The notes beneath the pieces are model-generated. The model was not told the origin of the DNA, did no database searches, and saw only the letters and a program-made list of their open reading frames with translations. Both the position numbers and the translations under genes were made by a program. 64,000 nucleotides of DNA from a phage: sequence record PZ386978.1; one strand, given 5' to 3'. Shown one piece after another: positions 3,739 to 64,000 of this stretch. Each line of letters starts with the position of its first letter. Position 1 is the stretch's first letter.

Positions 3739-3747
3739 ATCCCCACC

Positions 3748-10158: not shown

Positions 10159-10166
10159 AAGAGAGA

Positions 10167-10367
10167 ATGAAGATGAGAGTAAAAGACAATTTTAAAGTTA
10201 TTGACCACCGTTTAGTGGAACTCTCATCTCTTTCCAATGAGGTAATGATTGAACGTCTTAAGAGAGTTGAATCACGAAGGAAAGAGATTGCAGATGAAAT
10301 TCATGAACTGGACAAGATTGAAAATGGATTAAAAGCAGAACTACAACGAAGAGGTGCTAATGTCTAA
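10167..10367 (+). CDS. hypothetical small protein
   Basis: 66 aa ORF. Confidence 0.4.
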   Translation: MKMRVKDNFKVIDHRLVELSSLSNEVMIERLKRVESRRKEIADEIHELDKIENGLKAELQRRGANV

Positions 10368-12345
10368 AGGTCGTAAATTGAAAGAGGCTGGTCAGTTTGT
10401 TGGTCATTGTGCATGTCCACGTTGTGGTTCATCAGATGCTGGTTCAATCTATCATCATGACGATGATTCTTATTCGATGACTTGCTTTAGTTGTAACAAA
10501 GGTTTCCCAGAGTGGGATTTTGATAAAGGACAAATCGTGAGCACTTATTCTACTGGTTCAGACAATAAAAACCGTACTTTCCGTGGAATGGATTTAGACG
10601 ATGTGAAAGAAAACCTTGAAGCGATGGACTTGAAAGATAGGAAGATTCCTGCAAAAGTCCTTGAACGCTTAGGTATCAAGGTAGACATTGACAGTGATGG
10701 TGAAATTGATGCGCATTTCTATCCAACTTACAAACGTAATGAAGATGGTAAGCTAGAGCACGTCGGTTACCGTGTACGTCATCGTTATCCAGAAGACCAT
10801 CCAAAAGAACACCTACGAGGTAAGTTAAAAGACTTCTCAGGTGGCGTTGGAGACATTAAAGGTGAACTGGCAATGTTCGGTTCATGGATTGCTCCAGAAG
10901 GTGGTAACCGTCTATTCATCTGGGAAGGTGAGATGGAATGTGCGACAGCAATCTATATGACTTCTCTTGCGATTAAGGACAAGTCTCGTCGTAAGAATTA
11001 CTGTCACGTATCTGTTCCATCAGGTGCAAACATTAAGTCTATCAAAGACAACTATCAGTACATCACATCATTTGATGAGATTTACTTGTGCTTTGATAAC
11101 GATGAAGCAGGTGCTAAAGCTACCAAAGAGGCTGCTGGTATCCTACCTATTGAGAAGGTTCGTTTATTCCAGTATCCAGAGGGTGTAAAAGACCTTAATG
11201 AATGGTGGACAAAGTTCTATAAAGAGAAAGATACAGTTCTGGAAGGATTTAAGCAGCGTATCTACAATGCACCTCGTTACTGTCCTGCTGGTATCAAGAA
11301 CTTCGCAGATGGTTTTGAGGCAATGAAGAATCGTGGTCAGATTCCATTGATTCCTTTCCCAGAATCTTTCGGAGATTTGAACAGACTGACTTATGGTGGT
11401 TATGGTCTAGGTGAGATTACAACTCTGGCAGCACCATCTTCAGTGGGTAAATCAGCATACACTCGTGAAATGATTTACACAGCTTGGAAAGATACCGATT
11501 ACAATATTGGTGTAATTCCTGTAGAAGATACCTATGAAGAGTTGATGGAGATGCTCTGTGCAATCCACCTAAGCAAGCAGATTTCTGAGATTCCTTATGA
11601 CGAACGTGATTGGGATGAATTGAAGGAAGCACACGCAGAACTATCTAAAGGTCGTCGTATCCACATCGTAGACCATCAAGGGGCAATTGACCAAGATAAC
11701 TTGCTGGAGTTTGTTGACTATCTTGTTAATAGTTTAGACTGTAAGATTATTATTCTTGACCCTATTACGTTGGCTCTGTCACGTTCAGATACGGATGAAG
11801 AGGAAGTTTTGTCTGAGCTATTGCGTCGTTGCAAACGCTACCAGTATGCACAGGTAAACGTCTGTCACGTTCGTAAAAGTGCAGGTGGTCAGAAGGCTAA
11901 CTCCGAAGGTGGAGATATCTCTGAAGAGGATATTAAAGGTTCTGGTGCGTATTTCCAGATTTCTATGAACAACATCCTGTTAATGCGTAACAAAGTTGAC
12001 CCAGACCCTGTTAAGAAAAACTTGACAAAAATCAAGCTAACTAAATGTCGTCGTCACGGTAAGTCAACGGGTATTGCTGGTCATACTTGGTACAATCCAG
12101 ATACAGGACGCCTCATCAAAGCATCTGGTTGCGGAGTTGACATTGATGGTGCAGCAGAAAATATTCGCCAACAGTTTGGTATTGGTGAAGCTGAAGACCA
12201 TTACGATGACTCTTTGCCACATTATGAGGATGAAGTATTTGACCGTGAGACTGGTGAAGTCTATACTGAAGAGCAGCGTCAAAGCTCAACGATTCCACCT
12301 GTATTAAGTGAGGATGCAGATGACTGCCCATTCGAAACTGAGTGA
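10354..12345 (+). CDS. bifunctional DNA primase-helicase (T7 gp4-like)
   Basis: N-terminal zinc ribbon CxxC...CxxC (CPRCGSSDAG...CFSCNKGF); C-terminal DnaB-like helicase with Walker A APSSVGKSAY. Confidence 0.85.
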   Translation: MLMSKGRKLKEAGQFVGHCACPRCGSSDAGSIYHHDDDSYSMTCFSCNKGFPEWDFDKGQIVSTYSTGSDNKNRTFRGMDLDDVKENLEAMDLKDRKIPAKVLERLGIKVDIDSDGEIDAHFYPTYKRNEDGKLEHVGYRVRHRYPEDHPKEHLRGKLKDFSGGVGDIKGELAMFGSWIAPEGGNRLFIWEGEMECATAIYMTSLAIKDKSRRKNYCHVSVPSGANIKSIKDNYQYITSFDEIYLCFDNDEAGAKATKEAAGILPIEKVRLFQYPEGVKDLNEWWTKFYKEKDTVLEGFKQRIYNAPRYCPAGIKNFADGFEAMKNRGQIPLIPFPESFGDLNRLTYGGYGLGEITTLAAPSSVGKSAYTREMIYTAWKDTDYNIGVIPVEDTYEELMEMLCAIHLSKQISEIPYDERDWDELKEAHAELSKGRRIHIVDHQGAIDQDNLLEFVDYLVNSLDCKIIILDPITLALSRSDTDEEEVLSELLRRCKRYQYAQVNVCHVRKSAGGQKANSEGGDISEEDIKGSGAYFQISMNNILLMRNKVDPDPVKKNLTKIKLTKCRRHGKSTGIAGHTWYNPDTGRLIKASGCGVDIDGAAENIRQQFGIGEAEDHYDDSLPHYEDEVFDRETGEVYTEEQRQSSTIPPVLSEDADDCPFETE

Positions 12346-52473: not shown

Positions 52474-52938
52474 TTACTTTGGGTATACACTGTCAAGATA
52501 AATGTCAGCTTCCATTCTACGTCTGTTTTTCAGGCCGTTTGAAGTGACCCTCTTACCTTTGACTGTAACCTTGTTCCACCACTGCATAGCTTCTGCACAA
52601 CCTACCTTGTCACCAGCATTATGTCGCTTGATAAATGTAGAATCCTGCATAGCTGTGATACCGATGTTGTATGTTTCACTTACAAGTGCATCAAACTCGT
52701 TCTGAGAAGTTGGAACCTTGATGGCTTTGTTCACTGCTGCAACGAACTTTTCAACATCTTCGAGAAGATACTGTTCAGCTTGTTCAGCGGTAATCTTCAT
52801 ACCCATCTTAACAGGTTTACCAGAAATACGGATTGTTCCGTACCCAATTGTAGGGATTCCAGCAGAATCTTCGTAAGCCTCTAGCTTAAGACCTTCAAAG
52901 AACTTAATAGCCTCTAAACCTTTCTGTGAGAGTTGCAT
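52474..52938 (-). CDS. endolysin, glycoside hydrolase family 24 (T4-lysozyme-like)
   Basis: N-terminal EGLKLEAYEDSAGIPTIGYG catalytic E...D...T signature. Confidence 0.8.
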   Translation of the reverse strand: MQLSQKGLEAIKFFEGLKLEAYEDSAGIPTIGYGTIRISGKPVKMGMKITAEQAEQYLLEDVEKFVAAVNKAIKVPTSQNEFDALVSETYNIGITAMQDSTFIKRHNAGDKVGCAEAMQWWNKVTVKGKRVTSNGLKNRRRMEADIYLDSVYPK

Positions 52939-54323
52939 TATGCCTCCCCTGCTGGGTTAACTGTAACTGTTGCCGCATTAGATGTTACAGAGCCACCTGC
53001 GCCAGTAACTACACAGGTGTAGCTTCCTGCATCAGCAGTGGTTGCACCTTCTTTGGTGTAAGTTGCAGTAGTTGCATCAAGGATGTCTTCCTCACCTTTC
53101 TTCCACTGGTAACCTGTCGCACCTGTTGCCACAACATTCAGTGTTAAGGTCTCACCTTCAGTGATTTCTTGATTGGTTGGCTGTTGAGTGATTACCGGAA
53201 GTGCATTCACAGTAACTGTTGCTGCATTAGATGTGACTGTTGTGCCACCTGCACCAGTAACTACACAAGTGTATGAACCAGCATCGGCAGGAGCTACACT
53301 AGCTTTCGTGTAAGTCGCACCAGTTGCACTAGGGATGTTTACATTGTCCTTTTTCCATTGGTAACCTTCTGCGCCTGTAGCCTCAACACTCAGTGTCAAA
53401 GAGCTACCATCATTAACTACCTGATTGGTTGGCTGCTTGGTAATAACTGGTAAAGCATTTACCGTGACAGTTGCAGGGCTAGAAGTAACAGAACCACCTG
53501 CACCTGTTACGACGCAAGTGTATGAACCTGCATCTGCTGGCAGAGCACCAGACTTGCTATAGGTAGCCCCTGTAGCCGAAGGAATGTCAGAGCCATCTTT
53601 CTTCCACTGGTAACCCGTTGCACCCGTTGCAGTCACTTCCAAGCTGATGTTTCCACCCTCATTGATGGTCTGGCTAGAAGGTTGCTGTGTAATCACAGGT
53701 AGTGCGTTAACAGTAACTGTTGCCGCATCTGAGGTAACACTTGTCCCAGCCTCTCCAGATACAACACAAGTGTATGAACCAGCATCAGAAGGTGCTACAG
53801 ACTGTTTTGTGTAGGTTGCAGATGTGGCGCTAGTGATATCCTCACCATCCTTTTTCCATTGATATCCAGTGGCATTAGTTGCAATAATGCTTAGGGTAAG
53901 TGTACCACCTTCATTTACTGTTTGATTGGTTGGTTGCTGAGTAATTGATGGTGGCTTGATAGCATCCTTCAACTTAGCGTTCAACATTGAGAACGGCTTA
54001 ACCCTTGCCAACCATTCACAATAAATTGTATCAACGTCTTTACCATTGATAATTGCATATTGTAAGTCCATGAAGAAGTCAGAAGTTCTCATTTGAGCAC
54101 CGATGCTGTAAAGCAACTCATCACTAAATGGAACTTTGTAGTCTGGTTTGTAGTCAAACTCCTCAACTTCTGCAATATCAGCTTCAGGCCAATACGAACT
54201 GTAGGTAAGTGGTAAAATAGCCTCTTGATATGTTCTAAAATCATATCTCTTACCAGCTTTTACGTTTGCAATGAAGCCCTTCACAAACTCTTTGAAGTCT
54301 GGGTAAGTCTTTGCTTTAATCAT
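52938..54323 (-). CDS. protein with four tandem Ig-like domains
   Basis: 461 aa; four ~90 aa repeats each with GATGYQWKKDG...SATGATY...ADAGSYTCVV; N-terminal ~110 aa paralogous to 54320..54691. Confidence 0.6.
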   Translation of the reverse strand: MIKAKTYPDFKEFVKGFIANVKAGKRYDFRTYQEAILPLTYSSYWPEADIAEVEEFDYKPDYKVPFSDELLYSIGAQMRTSDFFMDLQYAIINGKDVDTIYCEWLARVKPFSMLNAKLKDAIKPPSITQQPTNQTVNEGGTLTLSIIATNATGYQWKKDGEDITSATSATYTKQSVAPSDAGSYTCVVSGEAGTSVTSDAATVTVNALPVITQQPSSQTINEGGNISLEVTATGATGYQWKKDGSDIPSATGATYSKSGALPADAGSYTCVVTGAGGSVTSSPATVTVNALPVITKQPTNQVVNDGSSLTLSVEATGAEGYQWKKDNVNIPSATGATYTKASVAPADAGSYTCVVTGAGGTTVTSNAATVTVNALPVITQQPTNQEITEGETLTLNVVATGATGYQWKKGEEDILDATTATYTKEGATTADAGSYTCVVTGAGGSVTSNAATVTVNPAGEA

Positions 54324-54738: not shown

Positions 54739-55329
54739 TTAAGCTTTGGTCTTAAGTAGGTTCTTAAGTTTTTTAAGATTCATACTCTCATCAAACTTAA
54801 AACCAAATCCATTGACATAATCAATGAACTCGGATTTCTTACTGAGTGACAGTGCGTAACTCATATCAAAGTTCTTACTTGTTTCTGCGTCTGGACTAGA
54901 GTTCACATCAAATGAAATTTCTGTAGGCTCTTGCTTACTTTTTCTCATATTATCAACCAACAAACATGTATAGTTTGCTGGATAGAAGTTTACACTACCA
55001 TCAACGTAGCTGTACTTATTATTATGGATAAGGTTGGAAAATACCTTAAGGAATGTTTCTGAGTCGTGGCAAACAAGTTTGAATTGGCTACTCTCTCCAA
55101 GCGCAACTAATGAGTACGGGCTTTCACTATCAAAGTTATAGTTTGGATTCGATGCAGTCACTGTTACACGCATCAAGTTATTAGCAATAGTCTTCTGTTT
55201 AAAAGAATTTTGAACATAGTGAAGACCCCTCTCACACTGATTGACTAGCTCTTTAAGTAGGTCATTTGCATATGGTGAGTTAATTGATACAGAGCCGTCA
55301 CTATTGTAATTAAAACTTACTGTTAACAT
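54739..55329 (-). CDS. hypothetical protein
   Basis: 196 aa ORF. Confidence 0.45.
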   Translation of the reverse strand: MLTVSFNYNSDGSVSINSPYANDLLKELVNQCERGLHYVQNSFKQKTIANNLMRVTVTASNPNYNFDSESPYSLVALGESSQFKLVCHDSETFLKVFSNLIHNNKYSYVDGSVNFYPANYTCLLVDNMRKSKQEPTEISFDVNSSPDAETSKNFDMSYALSLSKKSEFIDYVNGFGFKFDESMNLKKLKNLLKTKA

Positions 55330-55556
55330 TTTTCAGTTCTCCTGCGATTTATAATTTTGCTGCAATAGAGAAACGAAGTAAACTCACTGGAAGAAACCAC
55401 TAAGTGTTGTTCACTAGATTGAGCCATTGCCCTGAAATACATTCCAGTCAAAGCATCATAGTGACTATTCTTTCCAATTGAGGTTATATAGCCATGACTC
55501 TTTGCAGTTTGATATAAATCTATAATATCTGTGATTTCTAATTGGGAACTACACAT
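55323..55556 (-). CDS. hypothetical protein
   Basis: 77 aa; first gene of the minus-strand block. Confidence 0.4.
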   Translation of the reverse strand: MCSSQLEITDIIDLYQTAKSHGYITSIGKNSHYDALTGMYFRAMAQSSEQHLVVSSSEFTSFLYCSKIINRRRTEKC

Positions 55557-55948
55557 AGATAATCCTCTTGTCTTCTGTAATTTTGAAAGAACAGGTACAG
55601 ACCAATTTCAGAGGATGAATAGTAGATTAATTCTACTCTTTTTGATTCCTTACAGTGATTGGTATTCTTACCTTTCTTCGGTTTATTTGATTTTCTCATT
55701 AAGTCTCCTTTGTAGAACAAGGCAGACCTACAGCTTTAAGTAAGATGGTACAGTAATCCATACAACAAGTCAAGAACTATTGCAAGTTAAAAAAGTTGTT
55801 GACAAAGTACTTGACAAGGTGTAGGCTTATAAATACTTAGAAGATAACTTAAAAGGTTCCTCTAAAAAGGCTATTTAAACAGATATCTTTCTGGATATCT
55901 ATCTTTTATCTTAAAAGCCTTTTAAGAGGTCTTATAAGAGGCATACCA

Positions 55949-56320
55949 ATGAAAAACAGAACAAACAAAGGCCAGTTTAAAAAAGGCCAATCTGGAAACC
56001 CATCTGGAAGACCAAAAGGCTCTCGTAACAAAAGCTCACTTGTAAAAGCTCAACTGACCATTGATAATTCTGCTGAGTTTGCTGCAAAACTGTTTGAGGC
56101 GATTGTTACAAGGGACGCTGCTAAGCTTGCAGAGTTCGGGTTAAACACAGACGACGTAACCATCAAGAGTATGATTGAGGTCGGTAAAACCATCTTTACT
56201 CACTCAGCAGGTGAGATGAAAGCACTTGCAGCAGACACTAAGAAGACTCCTGATAACGGTGGTCAGTCCCAGACAGATAACAAACCAACGTTCTCTGCTG
56301 TTGCAACGCTCAAAAAATAA
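55949..56320 (+). CDS. hypothetical protein with N-terminal GNPSGRPKG motif
   Basis: 123 aa; basic N-terminus KGQFKKGQSGNPSGRPKGSRNK. Confidence 0.5.
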   Translation: MKNRTNKGQFKKGQSGNPSGRPKGSRNKSSLVKAQLTIDNSAEFAAKLFEAIVTRDAAKLAEFGLNTDDVTIKSMIEVGKTIFTHSAGEMKALAADTKKTPDNGGQSQTDNKPTFSAVATLKK

Positions 56321-56402
56321 TTTTAAAAGGTGTTGACAGACTCTACAAAGTTGCTCTAAAGTCTGTCACATCGACAAACAAAATGAGAGAAGAGAGTAAA
56401 AT

Positions 56403-57818
56403 ATGAGCGAATTATTTAAACATGCGCACCTTCATGCAGGTCGAACTGAAAATGTTGCTGTAAACCATACTTCATCAATGTCTGCTCTTGTAGACTTTTA
56501 CAAAGCTGCTGGTTCAAGCCGTAGCAATGTAGAAATCTTACCAGACCTGTTCTACAAAGCTTTGCGTGAGGATGTTGATGTTGCAGTTCGTATTTTACTG
56601 CATATGCGAGATGTACGAGAAGGTATGGGTGAGCGTAAAGCCTTCAGAACTGTTTTACTTCAAGCAATCGAAGACAAAGTTTTAGAGCCTACACAGGTTC
56701 TTCGCATTATGGATAAGATTGCAGAACTTGGTCGTTTTGATGACTTCAAAATCTTCGTAGGTACTCGTTTCGAGACAGATGCCTTCAAACATTTAGAAGC
56801 AGCATTACTAGACCCTGCAACAGCAGGTTTGGCAGCTAAGTGGTTACCACGAGTCAAACCACGTCATAAACAGTTTGTAAAACGTTTCTGCAAGTTTGCC
56901 AACTTGAGTGAGAAAGAGTACCGTACACTGTTGTCTGCACTATCTGATACAGTTGAGCAAAAAATCTCTGCTAATGAGTTTGGTAAGATTGATTACAGTA
57001 AGATTCCTTCACTTGCTGCTGCACGTTACCAAAAACTGTTTAACCGTAAAGATGGAGAACGCTACAAAGCTTACATTGAGTCTTTATCAAAGGGTGAGGC
57101 TAAGATTAATGCTGGTGCTGTTTACCCATACGATGTGATTAAATCTGTCAAGCATGGTAATGCAGATGTTGCTAATGAGCAGTGGAAAGCACTACCAAAC
57201 TGGATGGCAGAGGGTGAAAACATCTTATGTATGACTGATGTTTCAAGCTCAATGTCTTGGGTGAATTTTGGTTCAATCACTGCTCTTGATATTGGCGTAT
57301 CACTTGCCTTGTATGTAGCAGAACACAATACAGGTTGCTTTAAGGATGAGTTGATGGTTTATTCAACAAACCCTCACTTCATTGAACTGAGTGGTGATTT
57401 ACGAAACCGTCATCGTCAGGTGATGCGATACGTTGAATATGGCTCAACTAACTTACAAGCAGCTTTTGAACGCATTCTTGAGATAGGTAAGAGAAACAAC
57501 TTGACTCAGAAAGATATGCCAAGTAAGCTTATCATCTTCTCCGATATGGAGTTCAATCAGGTTGATGGAGCTAACGGTCGTACAAACTTTGAAGCAATTC
57601 AGAGTAAGTACAAGAAAGCTGGATACGAAATGCCACAACTGGTATTCTGGTACTTAGCAAACCGTAATGGTACTTGCGAAGTATCTGTTAAGGATAACGG
57701 TGTAGCAATGGTATCTGGTTTCTCTCCAGCCACTTTAAAAGCTCTGCTTGGTGGTGAGAAGTTTGACCCAATCAGCGTAATGCTCAAAGCAGTAATGATT
57801 GACCGTTATATCTGGTAA
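56403..57818 (+). CDS. vWA-domain protein (MIDAS DxSxS), possibly Ro60/TROVE-like
   Basis: 471 aa; MIDAS-like CMTDVSSSM in C-terminal half; helical N-terminal half; TROVE assignment is a guess. Confidence 0.45.
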   Translation: MSELFKHAHLHAGRTENVAVNHTSSMSALVDFYKAAGSSRSNVEILPDLFYKALREDVDVAVRILLHMRDVREGMGERKAFRTVLLQAIEDKVLEPTQVLRIMDKIAELGRFDDFKIFVGTRFETDAFKHLEAALLDPATAGLAAKWLPRVKPRHKQFVKRFCKFANLSEKEYRTLLSALSDTVEQKISANEFGKIDYSKIPSLAAARYQKLFNRKDGERYKAYIESLSKGEAKINAGAVYPYDVIKSVKHGNADVANEQWKALPNWMAEGENILCMTDVSSSMSWVNFGSITALDIGVSLALYVAEHNTGCFKDELMVYSTNPHFIELSGDLRNRHRQVMRYVEYGSTNLQAAFERILEIGKRNNLTQKDMPSKLIIFSDMEFNQVDGANGRTNFEAIQSKYKKAGYEMPQLVFWYLANRNGTCEVSVKDNGVAMVSGFSPATLKALLGGEKFDPISVMLKAVMIDRYIW

Positions 57819-57836
57819 AAAGTTTTAAAAAGGGTA

Positions 57837-57865
57837 TTGACAATGTGTTTGATACCCTTTAATAT
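57837..57865 (+). promoter_or_regulatory. sigma70-like promoter upstream of tRNA cluster
   Basis: TTGACA 57837-57842, 17 nt spacer, TAATAT 57860-57865. Confidence 0.55.
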
Positions 57866-57927
57866 GTTCTACATAGAAACGAAACGAGAGCTTTTCTAAG
57901 ATACTGAAAAATATTTTAAAAAAGTTC

Positions 57928-57958
57928 TTGACAATCACTAAAAAATAATGTTAAAGTG
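57928..57958 (+). promoter_or_regulatory. possible second promoter upstream of tRNA cluster
   Basis: TTGACA 57928-57933 with weak -10 candidates (TTAAAG/TAAAGT). Confidence 0.35.
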
Positions 57959-57983
57959 GTTACATAGAGTTTGAAAAGTTTAT

Positions 57984-58057
57984 CTCTGTTTAGCTCAGCT
58001 TGGTAGAGCGTTCCGTTTGGGGCGGTAAGGCCGGAGGTTCAAGTCCTCCAACAGAGA
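57984..58057 (+). tRNA. tRNA-Pro (anticodon UGG)
   Basis: Acceptor CTCTGTT/AACAGAG, D-arm GCTC..GAGC, anticodon loop TTTGGGG, T-arm GGAGGTTCAAGTCCTCC, CCA encoded. Confidence 0.7.
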
Positions 58058-58067
58058 CCAAATTAAT

Positions 58068-58142
58068 GTTCCAGTAGACAAAATGGTATAGTCACCACTC
58101 TTTCAAAGTGGATATTTGAGGGTTCAAATCCCTTCTGGAACG
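58068..58142 (+). tRNA. tRNA-Glu (anticodon UUC)
   Basis: Acceptor GTTCCAG/CTGGAAC, anticodon stem CCACT/AGTGG with loop CTTTCAA, T-loop TTCAAAT, CCA encoded. Confidence 0.7.
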
Positions 58143-58152
58143 CCAGTTTTGA

Positions 58153-58226
58153 CAGAAGACCAATTACAGCAAACTTAATCTTATTCATCTGAAGGTAAAT
58201 CGGACAAAGAAGAGATTTGGTCTGGT
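58153..58226 (+). ncRNA. conserved stem-closed element, copy 1
   Basis: CAGAAGACCAATTACAGCAA...ATTTGGTCTGG; stem AGACCAA/TTGGTCT. Confidence 0.4.
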
Positions 58227-58237
58227 CATTAAGAATT

Positions 58238-58310
58238 GCGGGTATAGAGAAAGGGCGTCTCACATGTCTCATTAGCATGGTATCGGCAGGTTCGACTCCT
58301 GCACCCGCCT
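58238..58310 (+). tRNA. tRNA-Met family (anticodon CAU; initiator, elongator or Ile-lysidine undetermined)
   Basis: D-stem GAGA/TCTC, anticodon stem CATGT/GCATG with loop CTCATTA, T-arm GCAGGTTCGACTCCTGC; acceptor boundary ambiguous by 1 nt. Confidence 0.6.
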
Positions 58311-58317
58311 CCAAATT

Positions 58318-58384
58318 TACAGAAGACCGTTTACAGCAATATTTATTAAATTTTTAGCGGAAAAATTGAAAGATACGGTCTGGT
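58318..58384 (+). ncRNA. conserved stem-closed element, copy 2
   Basis: CAGAAGACCGTTTACAGCAA...ATACGGTCTGG; stem AGACCGT/ACGGTCT (compensatory to copy 1). Confidence 0.4.
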
Positions 58385-58396
58385 AATACTAAACAT

Positions 58397-58470
58397 GGTT
58401 AGGAAGCACATAAGGTATGTGCGGTCGCCTGTTAAGCGAATGGCACAGGGTTCGAATCCCTGACTAACCG
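58397..58470 (+). tRNA. tRNA-Asn (anticodon GUU)
   Basis: Acceptor GGTTAGG/ACTAACC, D-stem GCAC/GTGC, anticodon loop CTGTTAA, T-arm CAGGGTTCGAATCCCTG, CCA encoded. Confidence 0.7.
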
Positions 58471-58542
58471 CCAAATTTAGGAGAGAAGCGATTGCTCACC
58501 GATTTGTAAGGTGCAAGTCCTTAGCCTGAATAGAAATTAAAT

Positions 58543-58627
58543 GTGTCGTTATCCCGTAGATGGTAGCGGTGGGGACTGTAAATCCCTTGTCATTGAGACT
58601 CGGTAGGTTCGACTCCTACACGGCACA
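58543..58627 (+). tRNA. tRNA-Tyr (anticodon GUA), long variable arm
   Basis: 85 nt; acceptor GTGTCGT/ACGGCAC, anticodon loop CTGTAAA, long variable arm, T-arm GTAGGTTCGACTCCTAC, CCA encoded. Confidence 0.65.
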
Positions 58628-58635
58628 CCAATAAA

Positions 58636-58710
58636 GGTTATGTAGTTTAATTTGGTTAAAATACTCCCCTGTCACGGGAGATGATGAGGGTTCAAATCCA
58701 TTCGTAACCG
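58636..58710 (+). tRNA. tRNA-Asp (anticodon GUC)
   Basis: Acceptor GGTTATG/CGTAACC, anticodon stem CTCCC/GGGAG with loop CTGTCAC, T-loop TTCAAAT, CCA encoded. Confidence 0.65.
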
Positions 58711-58773
58711 CCAATTTTGAGAGGGCTATTTAGCCCCTCCCTTAAAGAGTTCTTACGAGTATTCTTTAAAGGA

Positions 58774-58849
58774 GCAGAAGACCAAATACAGCAAGTTACT
58801 TAAAATTTCAAGCCAATTTAATTTTGAAAAATTTAAAACTTGGTCTGGC
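58774..58849 (+). ncRNA. conserved stem-closed element, copy 3
   Basis: CAGAAGACCAAATACAGCAA...CTTGGTCTGG; stem AGACCAA/TTGGTCT. Confidence 0.4.
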
Positions 58850-58860
58850 TCAACAAATTT

Positions 58861-58993
58861 ACAGAAGACCGTTTACAGCAAAACTTAAACAATCTATTTC
58901 TCGGTAAAGAAAAGGCGAAGGTTCGATTCCTTCACTCGGCAGATGTCGAGTTGGTGTAATGGTAGCACTTAAGATGATAAACAACGGTCTGGT
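58861..58993 (+). ncRNA. conserved stem-closed element, copy 4, with an embedded permuted tRNA-like segment
   Basis: CAGAAGACCGTTTACAGCAA...AACGGTCTGG; interior has T-arm GAAGGTTCGATTCCTTC + ACTCGGC directly followed by GTCGAGT + D-arm-like GGTGTAATGGTAGCAC. Confidence 0.4.
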
Positions 58994-59136
58994 AATTATC
59001 TTTGTAGATAAGTTATTAAGCTTACCTGTGAGTATGCGACCACAAAGGGTGAAGGGTAAATTCTAGATTTAAACCCAAAAAGGCACATCGCTACAGACCT
59101 TAAGCAAGTCTGGGTAGCTTATCTACAAAGATAATT
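58994..59136 (+). repeat. 19 bp perfect inverted repeat enclosing ~105 nt
   Basis: AATTATCTTTGTAGATAAG at 58994-59012 and its exact reverse complement CTTATCTACAAAGATAATT at 59118-59136. Confidence 0.6.
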
Positions 59137-59140
59137 TAAT

Positions 59141-59213
59141 GGAAGTGTAGCAGAATGGTGATGCGGCAGACTTTTAATCTGACAGGCGATGGGTTCGAAT
59201 CCCTCCACTTCTA
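59141..59213 (+). tRNA. tRNA-Lys (anticodon UUU)
   Basis: Acceptor GGAAGTG/CACTTCT, anticodon loop CTTTTAA, T-loop TTCGAAT, CCA encoded; paralogue of tRNA at 60730. Confidence 0.6.
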
Positions 59214-59220
59214 CCAATAT

Positions 59221-59294
59221 GGTTCAGTCGCAGATAAGGTAATGCAAGGGTCTCATAAGCCCTATGAATGTGGGTTCGATTCCCATCTGAACCT
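59221..59294 (+). tRNA. tRNA-Met family, second copy (anticodon CAU)
   Basis: Acceptor GGTTCAG/CTGAACC, anticodon stem AGGGT/GCCCT with loop CTCATAA, T-loop TTCGATT, CCA encoded. Confidence 0.65.
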
Positions 59295-59298
59295 CCAA

Positions 59299-59371
59299 GC
59301 TGGTATAGTTAAGAAGGTTATAACACTCCCCTGATAAGGGAACATCGGTGGTTCGATTCCACCTACCAGTA
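59299..59371 (+). tRNA. tRNA-Ile (anticodon GAU)
   Basis: Acceptor GCTGGTA/TACCAGT, D-stem GTTA/TAAC, anticodon loop CTGATAA, T-arm GGTGGTTCGATTCCACC, CCA encoded. Confidence 0.7.
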
Positions 59372-59389
59372 CCAATTTCAATAAAGTTG

Positions 59390-59418
59390 TTGACATTGAG
59401 ATGTGACTACTTTATAGT
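59390..59418 (+). promoter_or_regulatory. sigma70-like promoter inside tRNA cluster
   Basis: TTGACA 59390-59395, 17 nt spacer, TATAGT 59413-59418. Confidence 0.55.
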
Positions 59419-59622
59419 AACCTTAGTTTTCGTTGCGTAGCGTCTATTTTGCAAATTTAAAATAAATGCAAACGACAATGTTTTTCTGGCAGTAGCTTGA
59501 TAGGCTAAACACCAGTGAGGTCTTCCAATCCCTCATCAAAGAATTTGGCGTACTAGCCCACGGTATGATTAATAAGGTGGGCATCTTTAAGGGCTTTCTA
59601 AGAGAGTCTTTAAAGATAATTA

Positions 59623-59701
59623 CGGGGCGTATCTCAGCTGTCTTCTAAACAGCCGTTAATCGAGTAAGTGGAGTATGCGGGTTCGAGTCCTGCCGCCTCG
59701 A
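59623..59701 (+). ncRNA. atypical tRNA-like gene (acceptor + T-arm + anticodon-like hairpin with loop CTTCTAA; no recognisable D-arm)
   Basis: Acceptor CGGGGCG/CGCCTCG, T-arm GCGGGTTCGAGTCCTGC, hairpin GCTGT-CTTCTAA-ACAGC (would read UCU, Arg), 22 nt extra segment, CCA encoded. Confidence 0.4.
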
Positions 59702-59718
59702 CCAATTTTGGAGAAATC

Positions 59719-60066
59719 ATGAAAACTTGTATTAGGTGCAAACTCAGCAAGGATGAAAATGATTTCTACATGAAAGATGGTAGGAGAACTCATTCATACT
59801 GTAAAAAGTGTGTTAATGAGCAAACCATAGAAAGACAAAGAGCACTTAAACTCTCAGCTATTGAGTACAAAGGTGGGGTTTGTCACGATTGTGGTAAAAA
59901 GTATCATCCAGCAGTGTATGACTTCCATCATTTGAATCCTTCAGATAAAGATTTTAACATTGGTCATAGGAAAAGCCTTAAGTTCTCTCAAGAACTAAAA
60001 GATGAACTTGACAAATGTGTTTTGCTATGTTCAAATTGCCATAGGGTAAGACATGCAAAGTATTAG
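59719..60066 (+). CDS. HNH endonuclease within tRNA cluster
   Basis: Start at MKTCIRCK with GGAG SD (track start 59668 overlaps the upstream tRNA-like gene); zinc-finger cysteines and HNH core DFHHLNP...CSNCHRVRH. Confidence 0.7.
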   Translation: MKTCIRCKLSKDENDFYMKDGRRTHSYCKKCVNEQTIERQRALKLSAIEYKGGVCHDCGKKYHPAVYDFHHLNPSDKDFNIGHRKSLKFSQELKDELDKCVLLCSNCHRVRHAKY

Positions 60067-60203
60067 TTAGCAGATTACTTAGACGACCTTAGCGGGTCTC
60101 CGTGTAGGGAGGTGGTCTGTATCTCATGTTTTCCAGAACATGTAAATAATCTGAGAAGGGGCTTTACAGTGTTGAGATAATACGGTAAGCTTCGAATTAT
60201 AGT

Positions 60204-60283
60204 GTGGGACGATGTTAAGACTCTAAGGCATGAGCAACGGCCTCCAAAACCGTTTCAAAGGGGTTCAACTCCTCCGTCCCATG
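60204..60283 (+). tRNA. tRNA-Trp (anticodon CCA), 5' boundary uncertain
   Basis: Anticodon loop CTCCAAA, T-loop TTCAACT, acceptor GTGGGAC/GTCCCAT, CCA encoded; D-region longer than canonical. Confidence 0.5.
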
Positions 60284-60299
60284 CCAAAGTCTTATTAGG

Positions 60300-60387
60300 G
60301 GTAGGTAGCGGCTAATGGCAGCCAAACAGTCTTGAAAACTGTTGCCACTGTAGAGATACGGTGAGGGTTCGACTCCTTTACTTACCG
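60300..60387 (+). tRNA. tRNA-Ser (anticodon UGA), long variable arm
   Basis: 88 nt; acceptor GGTAGGT/ACTTACC, anticodon stem ACAGT/ACTGT with loop CTTGAAA, long variable arm, T-loop TTCGACT. Confidence 0.65.
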
Positions 60388-60644
60388 CCTAATAAGATTT
60401 AAAGCCAAGCTTCATTCGGATGTTGCTTTGGTATCACTCGTGTATTGTCGTACACACTGATAAAACACTTAGTAGGTGTCACGGAGAAGAGATAATATCA
60501 AGCTCTCCAAAGGTTCTAGTCACCGGATTAAACAAGACTATGCAAAGACCTTTTTAGGTCTTTTTAGAGGGCTTCTAAGGTTATTACAGCTTGTTGTGGA
60601 ACCTTGTTGCTTAGGTTCTTAGAAGTTCTCTAAAAAGATTTAAT

Positions 60645-60719
60645 GGGAGATTGATGGTAATTGGTAAACCTATCTCGCTTAGAACGAGATGTTTGAGGGT
60701 TCGAATCCCTTGTCTCCTA
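60645..60719 (+). tRNA. tRNA with anticodon UAG (Leu by anticodon) but short variable arm
   Basis: Anticodon stem TCTCG/CGAGA with loop CTTAGAA, T-arm GAGGGTTCGAATCCCTT, acceptor GGGAGAT/GTCTCCT, CCA encoded; 5 nt variable loop. Confidence 0.5.
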
Positions 60720-60729
60720 CCAAATTAAT

Positions 60730-60802
60730 GCAGGTGTAGCAAAATGGTTATGCGGCTGACTCTTAATCAGTAAGACGATGGGTTCAATTCCCTCCACCTG
60801 TA
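60730..60802 (+). tRNA. tRNA-Lys (anticodon CUU)
   Basis: Acceptor GCAGGTG/CACCTGT, anticodon loop CTCTTAA, T-loop TTCAATT, CCA encoded. Confidence 0.6.
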
Positions 60803-60811
60803 CCAGACATT

Positions 60812-60884
60812 GGGGTCATAGTTTATATGGTTAAAATTCGAGTTTTGCAAACTTGGGAACTGAGTTCAATTCTCAGTGACTCCA
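60812..60884 (+). tRNA. tRNA-Ala (anticodon UGC)
   Basis: Acceptor GGGGTCA/TGACTCC, anticodon loop TTTGCAA, T-arm CTGAGTTCAATTCTCAG, CCA encoded. Confidence 0.65.
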
Positions 60885-60893
60885 CCAATTAGT

Positions 60894-60965
60894 GCATCCA
60901 TAGTTTAAACGGGAAAATTACAGTCTTCCAAACTGAGGTTGAGGGTTCGATTCCCTCTGGATGCT
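60894..60965 (+). tRNA. tRNA-Gly (anticodon UCC)
   Basis: Acceptor GCATCCA/TGGATGC, anticodon loop CTTCCAA, T-arm GAGGGTTCGATTCCCTC, CCA encoded. Confidence 0.7.
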
Positions 60966-60975
60966 CCAAATTAAT

Positions 60976-61048
60976 GCTCCTATCGTATAATCGGCTATTA
61001 CGGTTGCCTTGTAAGCAACTTATCAGGGTTCGAATCCTTGTGGGAGCA
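60976..61048 (+). tRNA. tRNA-Thr (anticodon UGU)
   Basis: Acceptor GCTCCTA/TGGGAGC, anticodon stem GTTGC/GCAAC with loop CTTGTAA, T-loop TTCGAAT, CCA encoded. Confidence 0.7.
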
Positions 61049-61054
61049 CCAATT

Positions 61055-61143
61055 CAGAGGTCAAGTGAAAGACCGCTGGTGTCAACTGAAGACCGTAACA
61101 AATTCCACGGAGTTGAGTTAGCGGCACAACTTCAGACCTCTTT
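61055..61143 (+). ncRNA. large hairpin element between tRNAs
   Basis: Outer stem CAGAGGTC / GACCTCTT enclosing ~75 nt that contains CTGAAGACCGTAACAA (related to the CAGAAGACC elements) and inner stem TGAAG/CTTCA. Confidence 0.35.
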
Positions 61144-61146
61144 CAT

Positions 61147-61218
61147 ACTCGCTTAGTTTATATGGTAAAACATCACCCTTACAAGATGAAGAAAAAGGTT
61201 CAAGTCCTTTAGTGAGTA
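61147..61218 (+). tRNA. tRNA-Val (anticodon UAC)
   Basis: Acceptor ACTCGCT/AGTGAGT, D-stem GTTT/AAAC, anticodon loop CTTACAA, T-arm AAAGGTTCAAGTCCTTT, CCA encoded. Confidence 0.65.
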
Positions 61219-61222
61219 CCAT

Positions 61223-61297
61223 GTTCCAGTATCCCAATTGGCAGAGGATGCAAGCTCAAACCTTGTATTAGTGACGGTTCGAATCCGTCTTGGAACA
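61223..61297 (+). tRNA. tRNA with anticodon CAA (Leu by anticodon) but short variable arm
   Basis: Acceptor GTTCCAG/TTGGAAC, anticodon stem GCAAG/CTTGT with loop CTCAAAC, T-arm GACGGTTCGAATCCGTC, 75 nt, CCA encoded. Confidence 0.5.
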
Positions 61298-61305
61298 CCA
61301 ATTTT

Positions 61306-61378
61306 GCAGGATTAGTTCAAATGGATAGAGCAACAGTCTACGAAACTGTTAATAGGGGTTCGAATCCCTTATCCTGCG
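61306..61378 (+). tRNA. tRNA-Arg (anticodon ACG)
   Basis: Acceptor GCAGGAT/ATCCTGC, anticodon stem ACAGT/ACTGT with loop CTACGAA, T-loop TTCGAAT, CCA encoded. Confidence 0.7.
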
Positions 61379-61399
61379 CCAGATAAGCAAGAGGAATTT

Positions 61400-61642
61400 A
61401 TGCAAACATTAACCGTCGTTGAACATGAAAATTCCAATAGTATTGAGTTTGTAAGGGTTCCCACTATAGATACCCACATTTTCTTAAAAGTCGGATGGGA
61501 ATGCGACCCAATAAAAGTAGAAAGATTTATTGGTCATTGCTTTGGTGGAAGACAACTTAAAAGTGTCAATTTTGAGACAATGTTGCCAGAAAGCTCAGAA
61601 ACAAATAATAATGCTTACCTCCTTACGAGGGTTAGACAATGA
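61400..61642 (+). CDS. hypothetical protein within tRNA cluster
   Basis: 80 aa ORF between tRNA genes; coding status uncertain. Confidence 0.3.
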   Translation: MQTLTVVEHENSNSIEFVRVPTIDTHIFLKVGWECDPIKVERFIGHCFGGRQLKSVNFETMLPESSETNNNAYLLTRVRQ

Positions 61643-62196
61643 GATACTTAAAATATGCTTCATGGATTTTCTTAGCTTTACTAGACCCAATTGCAGCAAT
61701 CCTAGCAGTTATCTTAGCACCTTTCGTAGTTCCATTCTACAGTGAGAAGAAAGGGCATCTACCTTTTGGATTCAGATGGATGGAGACCTATGACAACCCA
61801 ATTGATGGTGACGAAGGTCACGTTAAAAGATGGGCTAAGATTAGAAAGATTGGTAAGCTAGGTGTCTACATGCAGAGAGTCGGATGGCTATGGAGAAACA
61901 AAGCTTATAACTTCTCTTACCATGTATTAGGAAGAGATGTAAAAGATGTCACTAAGTGGAAAGGTAATATCAACGTAAGTTCTGACCCTGAAGATAATCA
62001 GACAGGTTATCTCCTAATGTGGAACAACAATGCTTGGGGATTATTTGCTTTTATTCCGTCAATTAAAGTCTTTGGTAAACAGTTTTACTGGAGAATTTAT
62101 GTTGGATGGAAACTAAAAAGTGTTGTCCCAGAAGAAAGAGCATTCTCAAGGGAAAGAGTTATGTTGGCATTCTTTATTCATCCACTGAGAAAGTAA
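61639..62196 (+). CDS. hypothetical membrane protein within tRNA cluster
   Basis: 185 aa; N-terminal hydrophobic helices IFLALLDPIAAILAVILAPFVVPF; Trp-rich. Confidence 0.45.
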   Translation: MRYLKYASWIFLALLDPIAAILAVILAPFVVPFYSEKKGHLPFGFRWMETYDNPIDGDEGHVKRWAKIRKIGKLGVYMQRVGWLWRNKAYNFSYHVLGRDVKDVTKWKGNINVSSDPEDNQTGYLLMWNNNAWGLFAFIPSIKVFGKQFYWRIYVGWKLKSVVPEERAFSRERVMLAFFIHPLRK

Positions 62197-62204
62197 AGAT
62201 TTAA

Positions 62205-62277
62205 AGGGGATTAGTTTACAAGGTTAAAACCTCGGTCTTTGAAATCGAAGAAGTTGGTTCAATTCCAACATCCCCCG
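62205..62277 (+). tRNA. tRNA-Gln (anticodon UUG)
   Basis: D-stem GTTT/AAAC, anticodon loop CTTTGAA, T-arm GTTGGTTCAATTCCAAC, acceptor 3' ATCCCCC, CCA encoded. Confidence 0.65.
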
Positions 62278-62282
62278 CCAAT

Positions 62283-62358
62283 GCTCCATTACTCCAATTG
62301 GCAGAGAGGCCAGACTTAAAATCTGTGTTATGTATCGGTTCGAATCCGATATGGAGTA
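62283..62358 (+). tRNA. tRNA with anticodon UAA (Leu by anticodon) but short variable arm
   Basis: Acceptor GCTCCAT/ATGGAGT, anticodon loop CTTAAAA, T-arm ATCGGTTCGAATCCGAT, 76 nt, CCA encoded. Confidence 0.5.
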
Positions 62359-62366
62359 CCAAATTT

Positions 62367-62439
62367 AGCGGTATAGCATAACTGGCAATGCAACAGTCTC
62401 TGAAGCTGTCCTATTAAGGTTCAAATCCTTATGCCGCTG
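62367..62439 (+). tRNA. tRNA-Gln (anticodon CUG)
   Basis: Acceptor AGCGGTA/TGCCGCT, D-stem GCAT/ATGC, anticodon loop CTCTGAA, T-arm TAAGGTTCAAATCCTTA, CCA encoded. Confidence 0.65.
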
Positions 62440-62473
62440 CCACTTCTAAGGGTTCTTACGAGAGTCCTTAAAT

Positions 62474-62546
62474 GTGGCCTTATCATAAATGGTAATGACC
62501 CATGCTGTGAACATGGTCTATACGGGTTCAAATCCCGTAGGTCACC
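62474..62546 (+). tRNA. tRNA-His (anticodon GUG)
   Basis: Acceptor GTGGCCT/AGGTCAC, D-stem TCAT/ATGA, anticodon stem CCATG/CATGG with loop CTGTGAA, discriminator C, CCA encoded. Confidence 0.7.
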
Positions 62547-62554
62547 CCAATTTA

Positions 62555-62629
62555 TAGTCCAAGTAGCTTATATGGTTAAAGCGCGTGTCTGAAAAACATG
62601 AGAAGAGGGTTCAAATCCCACTGGACTAC
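62555..62629 (+). tRNA. tRNA-Phe (anticodon GAA)
   Basis: Acceptor TAGTCCA/TGGACTA, anticodon loop CTGAAAA, T-loop TTCAAAT. Confidence 0.65.
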
Positions 62630-62647
62630 CAATTTCAAAGGTGCTTA

Positions 62648-63382
62648 ATGAAAGAGATGACAGAACAAGGTAAGGAGATTTTTAATCTCTTAAAAACCGG
62701 TAAAGGGTTTTCTAACCCACTTATTACTGGTGCAGCAGTTCTCGGTGGAACCGTAGCTGCCTCTACATCACTTGTAAGCTCTATTAGCTCTGTAACAGAC
62801 CCTACAATGAAGGAGAAGCTTGTTGCTGCTGGACTTACAACAGTCCTTCTAAACAGTTTTACAACCAGCCTTACAAGCACTACAGCAACTACTAAGACCC
62901 TAACAGACTATGGTCAAAAGTCTATTGATGAGTTTTCATCACGTATGCAGGTAGCAAAGGGCTATTCCAATGTTATGGGTGCAGCAGGAGAACAAGTTGG
63001 TTGTACACCATTTAGTGGTATTATGGGTGTTGCTACAGAATATGGTCAAAAAGCTATTGACATGATGAACAGTACACTAGATAGTGTTAACGGTGTATTA
63101 AGTGACTTACAAGACGCTATTGACAAGGGTCTTGATACCGTTTCTGATTTAGCTAACCAAGCTGTTAGCAAGATTAATGAAGGTATCTCAAAGATTACAG
63201 CTTATGCAGATGAAGTTGTGCAGATGATTGAAGAAGAAGCTGCCCTTATTGCAGAGTACCTTAAAACGAATATCAATGGGTTCTTAGCAGGTATCTTACC
63301 AGATTGGTTTGATGATGCTTGTAAAACTGGTGTGATTGACACTATTGCAACACCAGAAATGAAGAACGCATTACAGAAATAA
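62648..63382 (+). CDS. hypothetical Ser/Thr-rich protein with hydrophobic segment
   Basis: Start at MKEMTEQ (track start 62585 overlaps tRNA-Phe); segment PLITGAAVLGGTVAASTSLVSSISSV. Confidence 0.45.
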   Translation: MKEMTEQGKEIFNLLKTGKGFSNPLITGAAVLGGTVAASTSLVSSISSVTDPTMKEKLVAAGLTTVLLNSFTTSLTSTTATTKTLTDYGQKSIDEFSSRMQVAKGYSNVMGAAGEQVGCTPFSGIMGVATEYGQKAIDMMNSTLDSVNGVLSDLQDAIDKGLDTVSDLANQAVSKINEGISKITAYADEVVQMIEEEAALIAEYLKTNINGFLAGILPDWFDDACKTGVIDTIATPEMKNALQK

Positions 63383-63383
63383 T

Positions 63384-63473
63384 GGAAGATTAACCCTAAA
63401 AGGTAAGGGAGCAGTTTGCTAAACTGCCAGTAGCTGAGAAATCGGTGTACCAGTTCAAGTCTGGTATCTTCCT
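63384..63473 (+). tRNA. tRNA-Ser (anticodon GCU), long variable arm
   Basis: 90 nt; acceptor GGAAGAT/ATCTTCC, anticodon stem GCAGT/ACTGC with loop TTGCTAA, long variable arm, T-arm ACCAGTTCAAGTCTGGT, CCA encoded. Confidence 0.7.
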
Positions 63474-63480
63474 CCAATTT

Positions 63481-63553
63481 GAATCCGTGACAGAAATGGC
63501 TATGTGCCTGTCTGCAAAACAGGTTTATAAGGGTTCGAGTCCCTTCGGATTCT
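63481..63553 (+). tRNA. tRNA-Cys (anticodon GCA)
   Basis: Acceptor GAATCCG/CGGATTC, anticodon stem CCTGT/ACAGG with loop CTGCAAA, T-arm AAGGGTTCGAGTCCCTT, CCA encoded. Confidence 0.7.
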
Positions 63554-63593
63554 CCAAGTTATTTTACTCTCTCTCAATTAAAATAATAATAAT

Positions 63594-63653
63594 GCCCTGC
63601 TATAAGTATTCTTCCTTTCGCTACCGAAGAGTATTTTTAGACAGGGCTTTTTT
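63594..63653 (+). terminator. intrinsic terminator closing the tRNA cluster
   Basis: Long hairpin GCCCTG...CAGGGC followed by TTTTTT. Confidence 0.55.
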
Positions 63654-63778
63654 ACAGAGTTATACTTTATAGGAAGACTTATACAGTATGTCTCTGACGT
63701 ACATTGTGGTTTCTCCTTGACGGTCTCTGTACCGTCTTTTTTAAGGGGAAACAAGATTTATTATTTGGAGAAAACATA

Positions 63779-63979
63779 ATGAGCGAGAACGTTTATAAAG
63801 AACTTTATGAAGCTAACAAGAAGTTAGAGTTTATGCAGAATACTATCATGGCAATTGCAGATAGATTATCTGTAGCAACAGGTATTGATATTAAAGAAGC
63901 ATCTATGGATGCACTTCTTGATGCTGTTGATGCAAAGTTCGAAGTTAAGAAAGAAGAGACTGCTACAGACTCTGAATAA
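63779..63979 (+). CDS. hypothetical small protein
   Basis: Start at MSENVYKELYE with GGAG SD (track start 63704). Confidence 0.4.
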   Translation: MSENVYKELYEANKKLEFMQNTIMAIADRLSVATGIDIKEASMDALLDAVDAKFEVKKEETATDSE

Positions 63980-64000
63980 TTCTATTTGCGGAGGCGCTTA

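Follow-up and report, generated by a model that had tools for sequence, protein, structure and literature searches.

A divergent Ro60-superfamily protein encoded beside tRNA genes and candidate Y RNAs in a Felixounavirus phage

Several systems that pair a Ro60 ring protein with small RNAs have been described in bacteria and their phages. The Ro60 protein of Thermus phage phiLo binds host PNPase as well as two Y-like RNAs that the phage itself encodes (PMC12135203). The bacterial Rsr systems likewise consist of a ring protein and paralogous small RNAs, YrlA and YrlB or Yrn1, with a common protein-binding stem (RYPER with PNPase; Rfam RF02553). Gene 130 of Escherichia phage JohannRWettstein (Bas63, MZ501086) was reported in the 2024 PhageMaP preprint to counter the Ppl defense system, and its product, gp130, was called structurally Ro60-like and encoded directly upstream of tRNA genes (PMC11482910). 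The subject of this analysis is an ortholog of gene 130 at positions 56403-57818 of a 64,000-nucleotide (nt) stretch of Felixounavirus DNA (sequence record PZ386978.1; hereafter the window), together with four small structured RNAs found in the tRNA array that follows it.

Ppl is a single protein with ATPase and PHP domains. Phage deleted for gene 130 form small plaques on a Ppl host, a defect that complementation reverses. T7 is likewise rescued on Ppl hosts by gp130, whether plasmid-borne or built into its genome; such relief is reported for Bas63 gp130 only. The authors speculated that Y RNAs could be among the genes annotated as tRNAs (all PMC11482910). Mycobacteriophage members of the same protein family are already labeled “Ro-like RNA binding protein.” The Ro60 idea put forward in the original prediction is thus right but not new, because the gp130 report and these annotations exist. 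The library searched contained no further paper tying Felixounavirus to Ro60 or Y RNA, and no functional paper on DUF2828, the Pfam family to which the N-terminal half belongs. The protein itself is already known; what is added here is the location of Y RNA candidates and the recurrent linkage of DUF2828-type Ro60 proteins to tRNA arrays and YrlA-type tRNA mimics. The preprint pointed to annotated tRNA genes, whereas the present candidates are unannotated elements between tRNA genes.

The window protein and bas63_0130 are both 471 residues long and identical at 456 of them (97%), and the neighboring genes are alike in the two phages (an Ig-like protein, a DUF5681 gene, and tRNA-Pro, -Glu, and -Met). 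The region as a whole is 97-99% identical to FelixO1-like phages. High identity and like gene order support orthology to gp130, and by orthology the window protein very likely has the published anti-Ppl role. The gene and its parts are as follows.

56403-57818, plus strand: divergent Ro60/TROVE-superfamily gene, ortholog of Bas63 gp130 (open reading frame, Pfam, PHROG, synteny, fold, profile homology)
56403-57197, plus strand: N-terminal helical TROVE/HEAT-ring-like half, residues 1-265 (DSSP of the model, HHalign)
57210-57767, plus strand: C-terminal vWA domain (Pfam DUF7788), residues about 270-455
57237-57254, plus strand: DVSSSM motif of the MIDAS (metal-ion-dependent adhesion site) at residues 279-284, with T349 and D381 completing the site (translation, alignment)

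The open reading frame begins with ATG, and two features foreseen from the letters alone, a DVSSSM motif in the C-terminal half of a 471-residue protein and a helical N-terminal half, were both confirmed. In the AlphaFold2 model (predicted local distance difference test score 88.2, predicted template modeling score 0.88), DSSP assigns only helices to residues ∼28-263, followed by an alpha/beta vWA domain. Pfam places DUF2828 on the N-terminal half (103.6 bits) and DUF7788 on the C-terminal half (147.8 bits), both above curated thresholds, and the full length matches phrog_850, “RNA-binding protein,” in PHROGs (E 4.7e-180). An NCBIfam scan gave no match. The MIDAS (DxSxS...T...D) is complete: D279, S281, S283, M284, T349, and D381 do not vary in a 37-sequence family alignment with relatives 40-89% identical.

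Structural and profile comparisons both lead to Ro60. A Foldseek search of the PDB with the model returned full-length Ro60 structures as the best 11 matches (E 2e-8 to 1e-6), among them Xenopus Ro60, human complexes, Deinococcus Rsr, and Thermus phage phiLo Ro60; isolated vWA domains form the tier below. The whole protein has the expected architecture, an alpha-helical HEAT-repeat ring closed by a vWA domain. For profile comparison, the phiLo Ro60 gene was recovered and 90 TROVE relatives were gathered, of which 32 were aligned. HHalign of the family alignment against this TROVE profile gave 99.0% probability and E 3.5e-18; the 402 aligned columns are collinear and pair residues 2-447 of the query with 22-477 of the template, residues 2-265 falling on the TROVE region. 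R69 and P242, invariant in the DUF2828 family, match a TROVE-invariant Arg and Pro, and the MIDAS residues align with D322, S324, S326, M327, T391, and D416 of TROVE proteins. Homology and matching invariants together place the protein in a divergent Ro60/TROVE branch that lies out of reach of the Pfam TROVE model.

It had been allowed at the outset that this might be an unrelated vWA protein whose helical N terminus resembles Ro60 only superficially. Conventional sequence searches go some way with that view: neither the window protein nor eight distant relatives (from phages of Mycobacterium, Listeria, Enterococcus, Bacillus, Campylobacter, Staphylococcus, and Sinorhizobium) match Pfam TROVE (PF05731) or vWA_Ro60 (PF25045) at E<=1, phmmer and hmmsearch against PDB sequences found nothing significant (a sole trace, E 2.2, to phiLo Ro60 at the MIDAS), and identity to Ro60 structures is only 11-16%. 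The phiLo Ro60 (PDB 9KOP, 9L5Y) differs in being a Pfam TROVE member, and as a positive control it does match the model. Of the proposed family searches, then, the direct TROVE and vWA_Ro60 scans gave no match and the profile-profile comparison a significant one; the proposed structural comparison with Ro60 was unequivocal. As far as computation goes, fold and profile homology refute an unrelated protein, a reading that now deserves next to no credence, and the protein is almost certainly a Ro60 homolog.

The gene is present in 252 phage records when DNA is compared and in 710 when proteins are; at E<=1e-3 the matches extend to 2347 protein clusters. Labels vary across its records and include “RNA-binding protein,” “vWFA protein,” and “hypothetical protein.”

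The original prediction had also set the gene directly upstream of a tRNA cluster containing non-tRNA structured RNAs, and both statements hold. An array of 25 tRNA genes, all on the plus strand, begins 165 nt past the stop codon (ARAGORN), and four conserved, unannotated stem-loop RNAs, termed cassettes, lie between tRNA genes within 58150-58995, 330-1180 nt downstream of the gene.

57984-63556, plus strand: 25-tRNA-gene array, broken by the noncoding RNA cassettes and a few open reading frames (ARAGORN, Rfam tRNA)
58150-58228, plus strand: cassette 1, with UGAC/GUCA terminal helix, AGA/G bulge, AGACCAA/UUGGUCU, UACAGCAA loop, and apical hairpin
58317-58386, plus strand: cassette 2, with basal helix UAC/GUA and AGACCGU/ACGGUCU (fold z -2.08)
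58772-58851, plus strand: cassette 3, with basal helix GAGC/GCUC and AGACCAA/UUGGUCU (fold z -1.99)
58859-58995, plus strand: cassette 4, with the common basal helix around a YrlA-type permuted tRNA-like domain (fold, pair counts)

All four copies follow the pattern CAGAAGACC-NN-UACAGCAA ... NN-GGUCUGG and fold with a common base: a 3-4-bp terminal helix, an AGA/G bulge, and a 7-8-bp helix (AGACCNN/NNGGUCU). Over nine distinct arm sequences this basal helix is 92.6% paired, compared with 21-46% in slid controls, and both sides have changed at 5 of 12 pairs, including UGAC/GUCA versus GAGC/GCUC versus UAC/GUA in the terminal helix. The G-U wobbles are compatible with the plus strand only. Cassette 1 is kept in Bas63, Si3, HP1, and ESh21, and cassette 3 in all eight genomes examined. 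The cassettes are probably genuine structured RNAs, and since neither the bulged helix nor the UACAGCAA loop differs among the four paralogs, one common binding factor is suggested. A promoter in a cassette 5' arm (TTTACA-16-AATATT, 58316-58343) was considered and rejected, as it fails to explain covariation with the 3' arm 50-115 nt away.

Cassette 4 is the best Y RNA candidate. A screen for T-arm hairpins outside the called tRNAs first picked out its core (at 58917-58933), in which the arms of a tRNA are found in permuted order.

58914-58971, plus strand: permuted tRNA-like core
58917-58933, plus strand: T-arm, GAAGG-UUCGAUU-CCUUC
58934-58951, plus strand: closed acceptor-like hairpin of 7 bp and a tetraloop, ACUCGGC-AGAU-GUCGAGU
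58952-58953, plus strand: linker UG
58954-58968, plus strand: D-arm, GUGU-AAUGGUA-GCAC

A circularly permuted tRNA-like layout is the definition of bacterial YrlA (PMC4201824). In the fold of cassette 4, T-arm, closed hairpin, and D-arm all sit inside one long stem joining the 5' and 3' arms, and fold, covariation, and a covariance model (R1, below) agree on a permuted tRNA-like domain within such a stem. The element occurs in 253 Ounavirinae phage records and is annotated almost never. Felixounavirus, Suspvirus, and Mooglevirus all have the same T- and D-arms, and in their acceptor-like hairpins, which stay 100% paired, 3 of the 7 pairs have changed on both sides (AU/UA/CG, GC/UA, and GU/UG/UA). 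For the whole structure, 94% of cells are paired, versus 47-51% with the partners slid, and here too the G-U wobbles suit the plus strand alone. An inner 4-bp CUUA/UAAG helix of the minimum free energy fold was dropped, being unconserved in SUSP2 or Moogle.

The locus also resembles the Rsr systems in that the RNA with the permuted tRNA-like domain is a same-strand neighbor of the Ro60 gene, no more than about 4 kb away (PMC4201824); here the distance is 1041 nt past the stop codon, on the plus strand. Several small RNAs with a common bulged helix, one of them bearing a tRNA mimic, is the pattern of YrlA/YrlB and of phiLo Yrl1/Yrl2. The differences are equally clear. The window protein comes from another sequence family (DUF2828/DUF7788) than bacterial Rsr, and no rtcBA-type repair genes were seen adjoining it in the window. 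Cassette 4 receives no score from RF02553 and differs from YrlA by an additional V-like hairpin and by stems rich in AU. In phiLo the RNAs are encoded upstream of the Ro60 gene and carry a CGAA motif, whereas the window RNAs lie downstream, in the tRNA array, with a different UACAGCAA loop and helix.

Evidence from other phages extends the linkage. By R1 or the Rfam YrlA model, YrlA-type cores are found beside family genes in seven further phage lineages or contigs. Model R1, built from the Ounavirinae core only, gave eight matches across 75 unbiased IMG/VR loci (763 kb, E<=1e-3), 8/8 on the gene strand. Elements and background levels are listed in the coordinates of each locus.

Bacillus phage Nate (L011), 3263-3325, gene strand: non-tRNA element, R1 42.9 bits
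Mycobacteriophage JoeDirt (L008), 6537-6593, gene strand: core of a YrlA-like RNA, R1 42.5 bits, E 1.5e-9
L047, 9408-9465, gene strand: closed hairpin, R1 48.8 bits
L068, 6442-6498, gene strand: core 59 nt past the stop codon, R1 37.6 bits
L068, 6560-6621, gene strand: second tandem copy, R1 28.2 bits
L031, 3801-3857, gene strand: closed hairpin with a UUCG tetraloop, R1 28.5 bits
Tandem-tRNA junctions, various positions: R1 background, 25-29 bits
Remainder of the window: nothing else, R1 <=17.5 bits

The Rfam YrlA model independently scores the L031 element (41.9 bits) and, with scores likewise significant though under its threshold, matches JoeDirt (39.8 bits, E 1.9e-7 in a focused search), LilDestine (21.7 bits), and Sinorhizobium phage phiN3 (35.9 bits, 1.3 kb upstream of the family gene). 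The JoeDirt, LilDestine, and phiN3 elements are called YrlA-like rather than certified because their scores are below the gathering threshold of 69 bits. JoeDirt gp52 and LilDestine gp55 have the same DUF2828 and DUF7788 halves and are 31-33% identical to the window protein. In these cluster-L mycobacteriophages the match lies 100-125 nt past the stop codon; they differ from the window in having no tRNAs nearby, and a single Y-like RNA was seen rather than four cassettes. An Rfam YrlA match in Bacillus phage Nate (2877-3021) was discarded as a tandem-tRNA artifact, and a Listeria phage A511 candidate at 2064 is ambiguous, R1 having joined its T-arm to the D-arm of the next tRNA.

The tRNA genes themselves recur beside the family. 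They lie within 5 kb of the family gene in 8 of 11 GenBank lineages, all on the gene strand; the gene is embedded among tRNAs in Enterococcus phage EF5, has 19 tRNAs upstream in Bacillus phage Nate, and is tRNA-linked in Listeria A511, Campylobacter CP30A, and Yersinia P778. Among 60 of the 75 unbiased IMG/VR loci, ARAGORN finds tRNAs within 5 kb at 21, 149/149 on the gene strand, and these arrays often start 18-360 nt past the stop codon of the family gene. The upstream DUF5681 gene was rejected as a conserved partner, being a neighbor only in the close relative P778.

The best explanation for these features, and a reasonably probable one, is that a Ro60-superfamily ortholog of the anti-Ppl protein works with the cassette RNAs as a ribonucleoprotein (RNP). 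By analogy with cellular Ro60, Rsr, and phiLo Ro60, the ring would bind structured RNA, and the four downstream RNAs would be its likely dedicated partners, held through the bulged helix. The tRNA-like module may recruit tRNA-directed enzymes or mimic their substrates. Such an RNP could control entry to the ring or link it with host enzymes that act on tRNA-like RNA (for example PNPase, or tRNA-processing or repair enzymes) and, perhaps with host PNPase as in RYPER and phiLo, act on structured RNA during infection. Maintenance or clearance of tRNA-like RNAs might then blunt host immunity. RNA binding, the identity of the partners, and the manner of countering Ppl are the inferred steps of this scheme. 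Whether the cassettes are partners of the Ro60-like protein is a finely balanced matter, tilting slightly toward no. More tentative still is the joint proposal that all four cassettes are Y RNAs of this DUF2828-type Ro60, one YrlA-like with a tRNA mimic and three YrlB-like, and that Ro60, tRNA-mimic Y RNA(s), and a tRNA array form a widespread phage RNP module guarding the translation apparatus.

Several observations count against the pairing of protein and RNAs, beginning with the RNAs themselves. The Rfam YrlA model leaves cassette 4 unmatched at E<=1 over 55300-64000 and at E<=10 over 58700-59150, the RNA at 58859-58995 falling short of the 69-bit gathering threshold, and no Y RNA family at all came up when the window was scanned with Rfam. 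The YrlA motif GNCGAAN0-1G, thought to be the Ro60 contact, is present in the window as GGCGAAG (58914-58920) and is not conserved, with GGAGAAG or AGAGAAG in its place in Si3, ESh21, Moogle, and HP1; the conserved element is a different one, the bulged AGACC helix and UACAGCAA common to all four cassettes. Thermodynamic z-scores are modest (-1 to -2), and there are few independent covariation events because the comparison covers about three genera and the paralogs only. The cassette motif is not in Yersinia phage P778, a 53%-identical relative.

Some of these points fit a second explanation, in which the cassettes and core are unrelated to the protein and serve as spacer processing signals of a polycistronic tRNA precursor, or are a rearranged tRNA remnant retained for helping RNase P, E, or III processing. 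The T4 tRNA cluster also has stable non-tRNA RNAs. The cassettes are placed exactly between tRNA genes, T- and D-arm motifs are what tRNA-processing enzymes recognize, cassette 4 escapes the Rfam YrlA model, and P778 retains the protein and the tRNA array while lacking the cassette motif. However, a closed acceptor hairpin with compensatory changes is unexpected for a decaying tRNA, and the T-arm/closed hairpin/D-arm layout is found without an adjoining tRNA array in JoeDirt, LilDestine, and phiN3. The L068 core that directly follows the family gene, and the common binding factor suggested by the identical helix and loop of the four paralogs, also speak against spacer signals. An origin of this kind for the cassettes is judged unlikely.

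Other observations question the role of RNA in the protein's action. RNA binding by DUF2828-type proteins is without experimental precedent, and 39 of the 60 family loci have no tRNA within 5 kb. The enrichment of tRNAs and R1 matches around family genes is qualitative. Since gp130 alone rescues T7 on Ppl hosts, the phage RNAs are dispensable there unless host RNAs substitute. For the anti-Ppl effect, either the phage RNAs are not needed, or host RNAs are used, or the MIDAS face acts. The last of these is the main rival explanation: gp130 would counter Ppl by protein-protein contact through its vWA/MIDAS face, like the vWA domains of midasin, integrin, and Ku. On this view the Ro60-like ring would be a scaffold retained by descent, with no RNA partner of its own, and tRNA proximity would only reflect a common early “accessory” region. 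The restoration of plaquing without any Bas63 RNA, the complete and invariant MIDAS, and the many loci distant from tRNAs are all in line with it, as is the finding that the nearest non-Ro60 structures are MIDAS domains with protein ligands. Against a mere scaffold, the entire TROVE-like half is conserved over the 710 phage records with invariant Arg/Lys positions, is collinear with RNA-binding Ro60 proteins by HHalign, and is encoded beside same-strand YrlA-type RNAs in at least eight lineages or contigs. Purely protein-protein contact through the MIDAS face is judged improbable, and the RNP remains the preferred account.

If the more tentative proposal of a Ro60, Y RNA, and tRNA-array module is true, it would exist in several hundred phage genomes infecting Gram-negative, Gram-positive, and actinobacterial hosts, and would defend phage translation against RNA-directed host immunity, Ppl being one target. 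The Y RNA question is now testable, with conserved, covarying, unannotated candidates that have coordinates and a common putative binding helix. Confirmation of the pairing would turn the large Pfam family DUF2828 into a Ro60 branch with known RNA partners and would connect phage tRNA arrays, tRNA mimicry, and counter-defense.

The sequences flanking the gene contain possible transcription signals.

56333-56362, plus strand: sigma-70-like promoter TTGACA-18-TAAAGT, 41 nt before the start codon (consensus scan, 10/12)
57837-57865 and 57928-57957, plus strand: two sigma-70-like promoters between the stop codon and tRNA-Pro (scan, 10/12 each)
57829-57860, plus strand: 12-bp hairpin right after the stop codon, over the -35 of the next promoter (terminator-like scan)

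The hexamer pair of the first promoter is found again at 57928-57957, and the hairpin has a weak T-run. To judge from these motifs, the gene seems to have a sigma-70-type promoter to itself; the promoter calls are suggestions only, because shuffled sequence contains at least as many promoter-like sites overall as the region does. Directly upstream, 55949-56320 (plus strand) encodes a 123-residue DUF5681 protein with its own TTGACA-type promoter by eye. Farther upstream, 52938-54323 (minus strand) encodes a 461-residue protein with four tandem Ig-like repeats (GYQWKKDG...AGSYTCVV). It is labeled “immunoglobulin-like domain protein” in Bas63 and probably decorates the capsid, like Hoc.

Within the array, 59624-59705 holds a tRNA-like element not called by ARAGORN. 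Its acceptor stem is CGGGGCG/CGCCUCG and its anticodon loop CUUCUAA (UCU, Arg); it ends in CCA and has a good T-arm, whereas a normal D-arm is missing and a long stretch is added. Rfam rates the element tRNA-Sec-like (25 bits), and it stands in place of the ordinary tRNA-Arg(UCU) of Bas63. A small HNH-type open reading frame that is not in Bas63 follows at 59719-60066, which suggests a homing-endonuclease insertion. Two plus-strand open reading frames inside the array, 61639-62196 (185 residues) and 62585-63382 (265 residues), are kept in Bas63 as bas63_0153 and bas63_0159. Weak tmRNA-like Rfam matches (15-29 bits) occur in the tRNA arrays of three phages (window 59316-59621; Yersinia phage P778, L003, 8009-8166; L031 9601-9704); in the P778 region no tRNA can be called around a good T-arm at 8125-8141. 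The three regions may be further tRNA-like non-tRNA elements. As Rfam evidence, the array's weak matches to tmRNA, tRNA-Sec, and miRNA were set aside as noise from tRNA-like sequence. The “tRNA-OTHER” annotations of some records denote tRNA-Tyr/Asp rather than the new Y-like element.

Other family loci offer minor observations of their own. In Listeria phage A511 (L007), a ROOL RNA match at 3465-4016 (87.5 bits, E 3e-16; gathering score 99.1) has the tRNA array on one side and the DUF2828 family gene, whose strand it shares, on the other. Two IMG/VR contigs carry “mini” modules, a T-arm, 2-4 nt, and a D-arm without an acceptor hairpin, 80-130 nt before the start of the family gene (L047 4880-4923 and L049 4828-4870; R1 about 29 bits). 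A phage tmRNA (tag VGSGELAVA) lies at L051 10822-11176, 4.4 kb downstream of a family member and on the same strand. Sinorhizobium phage phiN3 (L013) has a tRNA with the ochre-suppressor-like anticodon UUA, annotated tRNA-TERM, at 8127-8204, 1.8 kb downstream of its family gene, and a macro-domain (Appr-1-p processing) gene 0.7 kb upstream. In Aeromonas phage 4_4572 (L012), an RNA ligase 2 gene (10071-10994) 3.7 kb downstream of the family gene recalls the RNA-repair linkage of Salmonella rsr-yrlBA-rtcBA.

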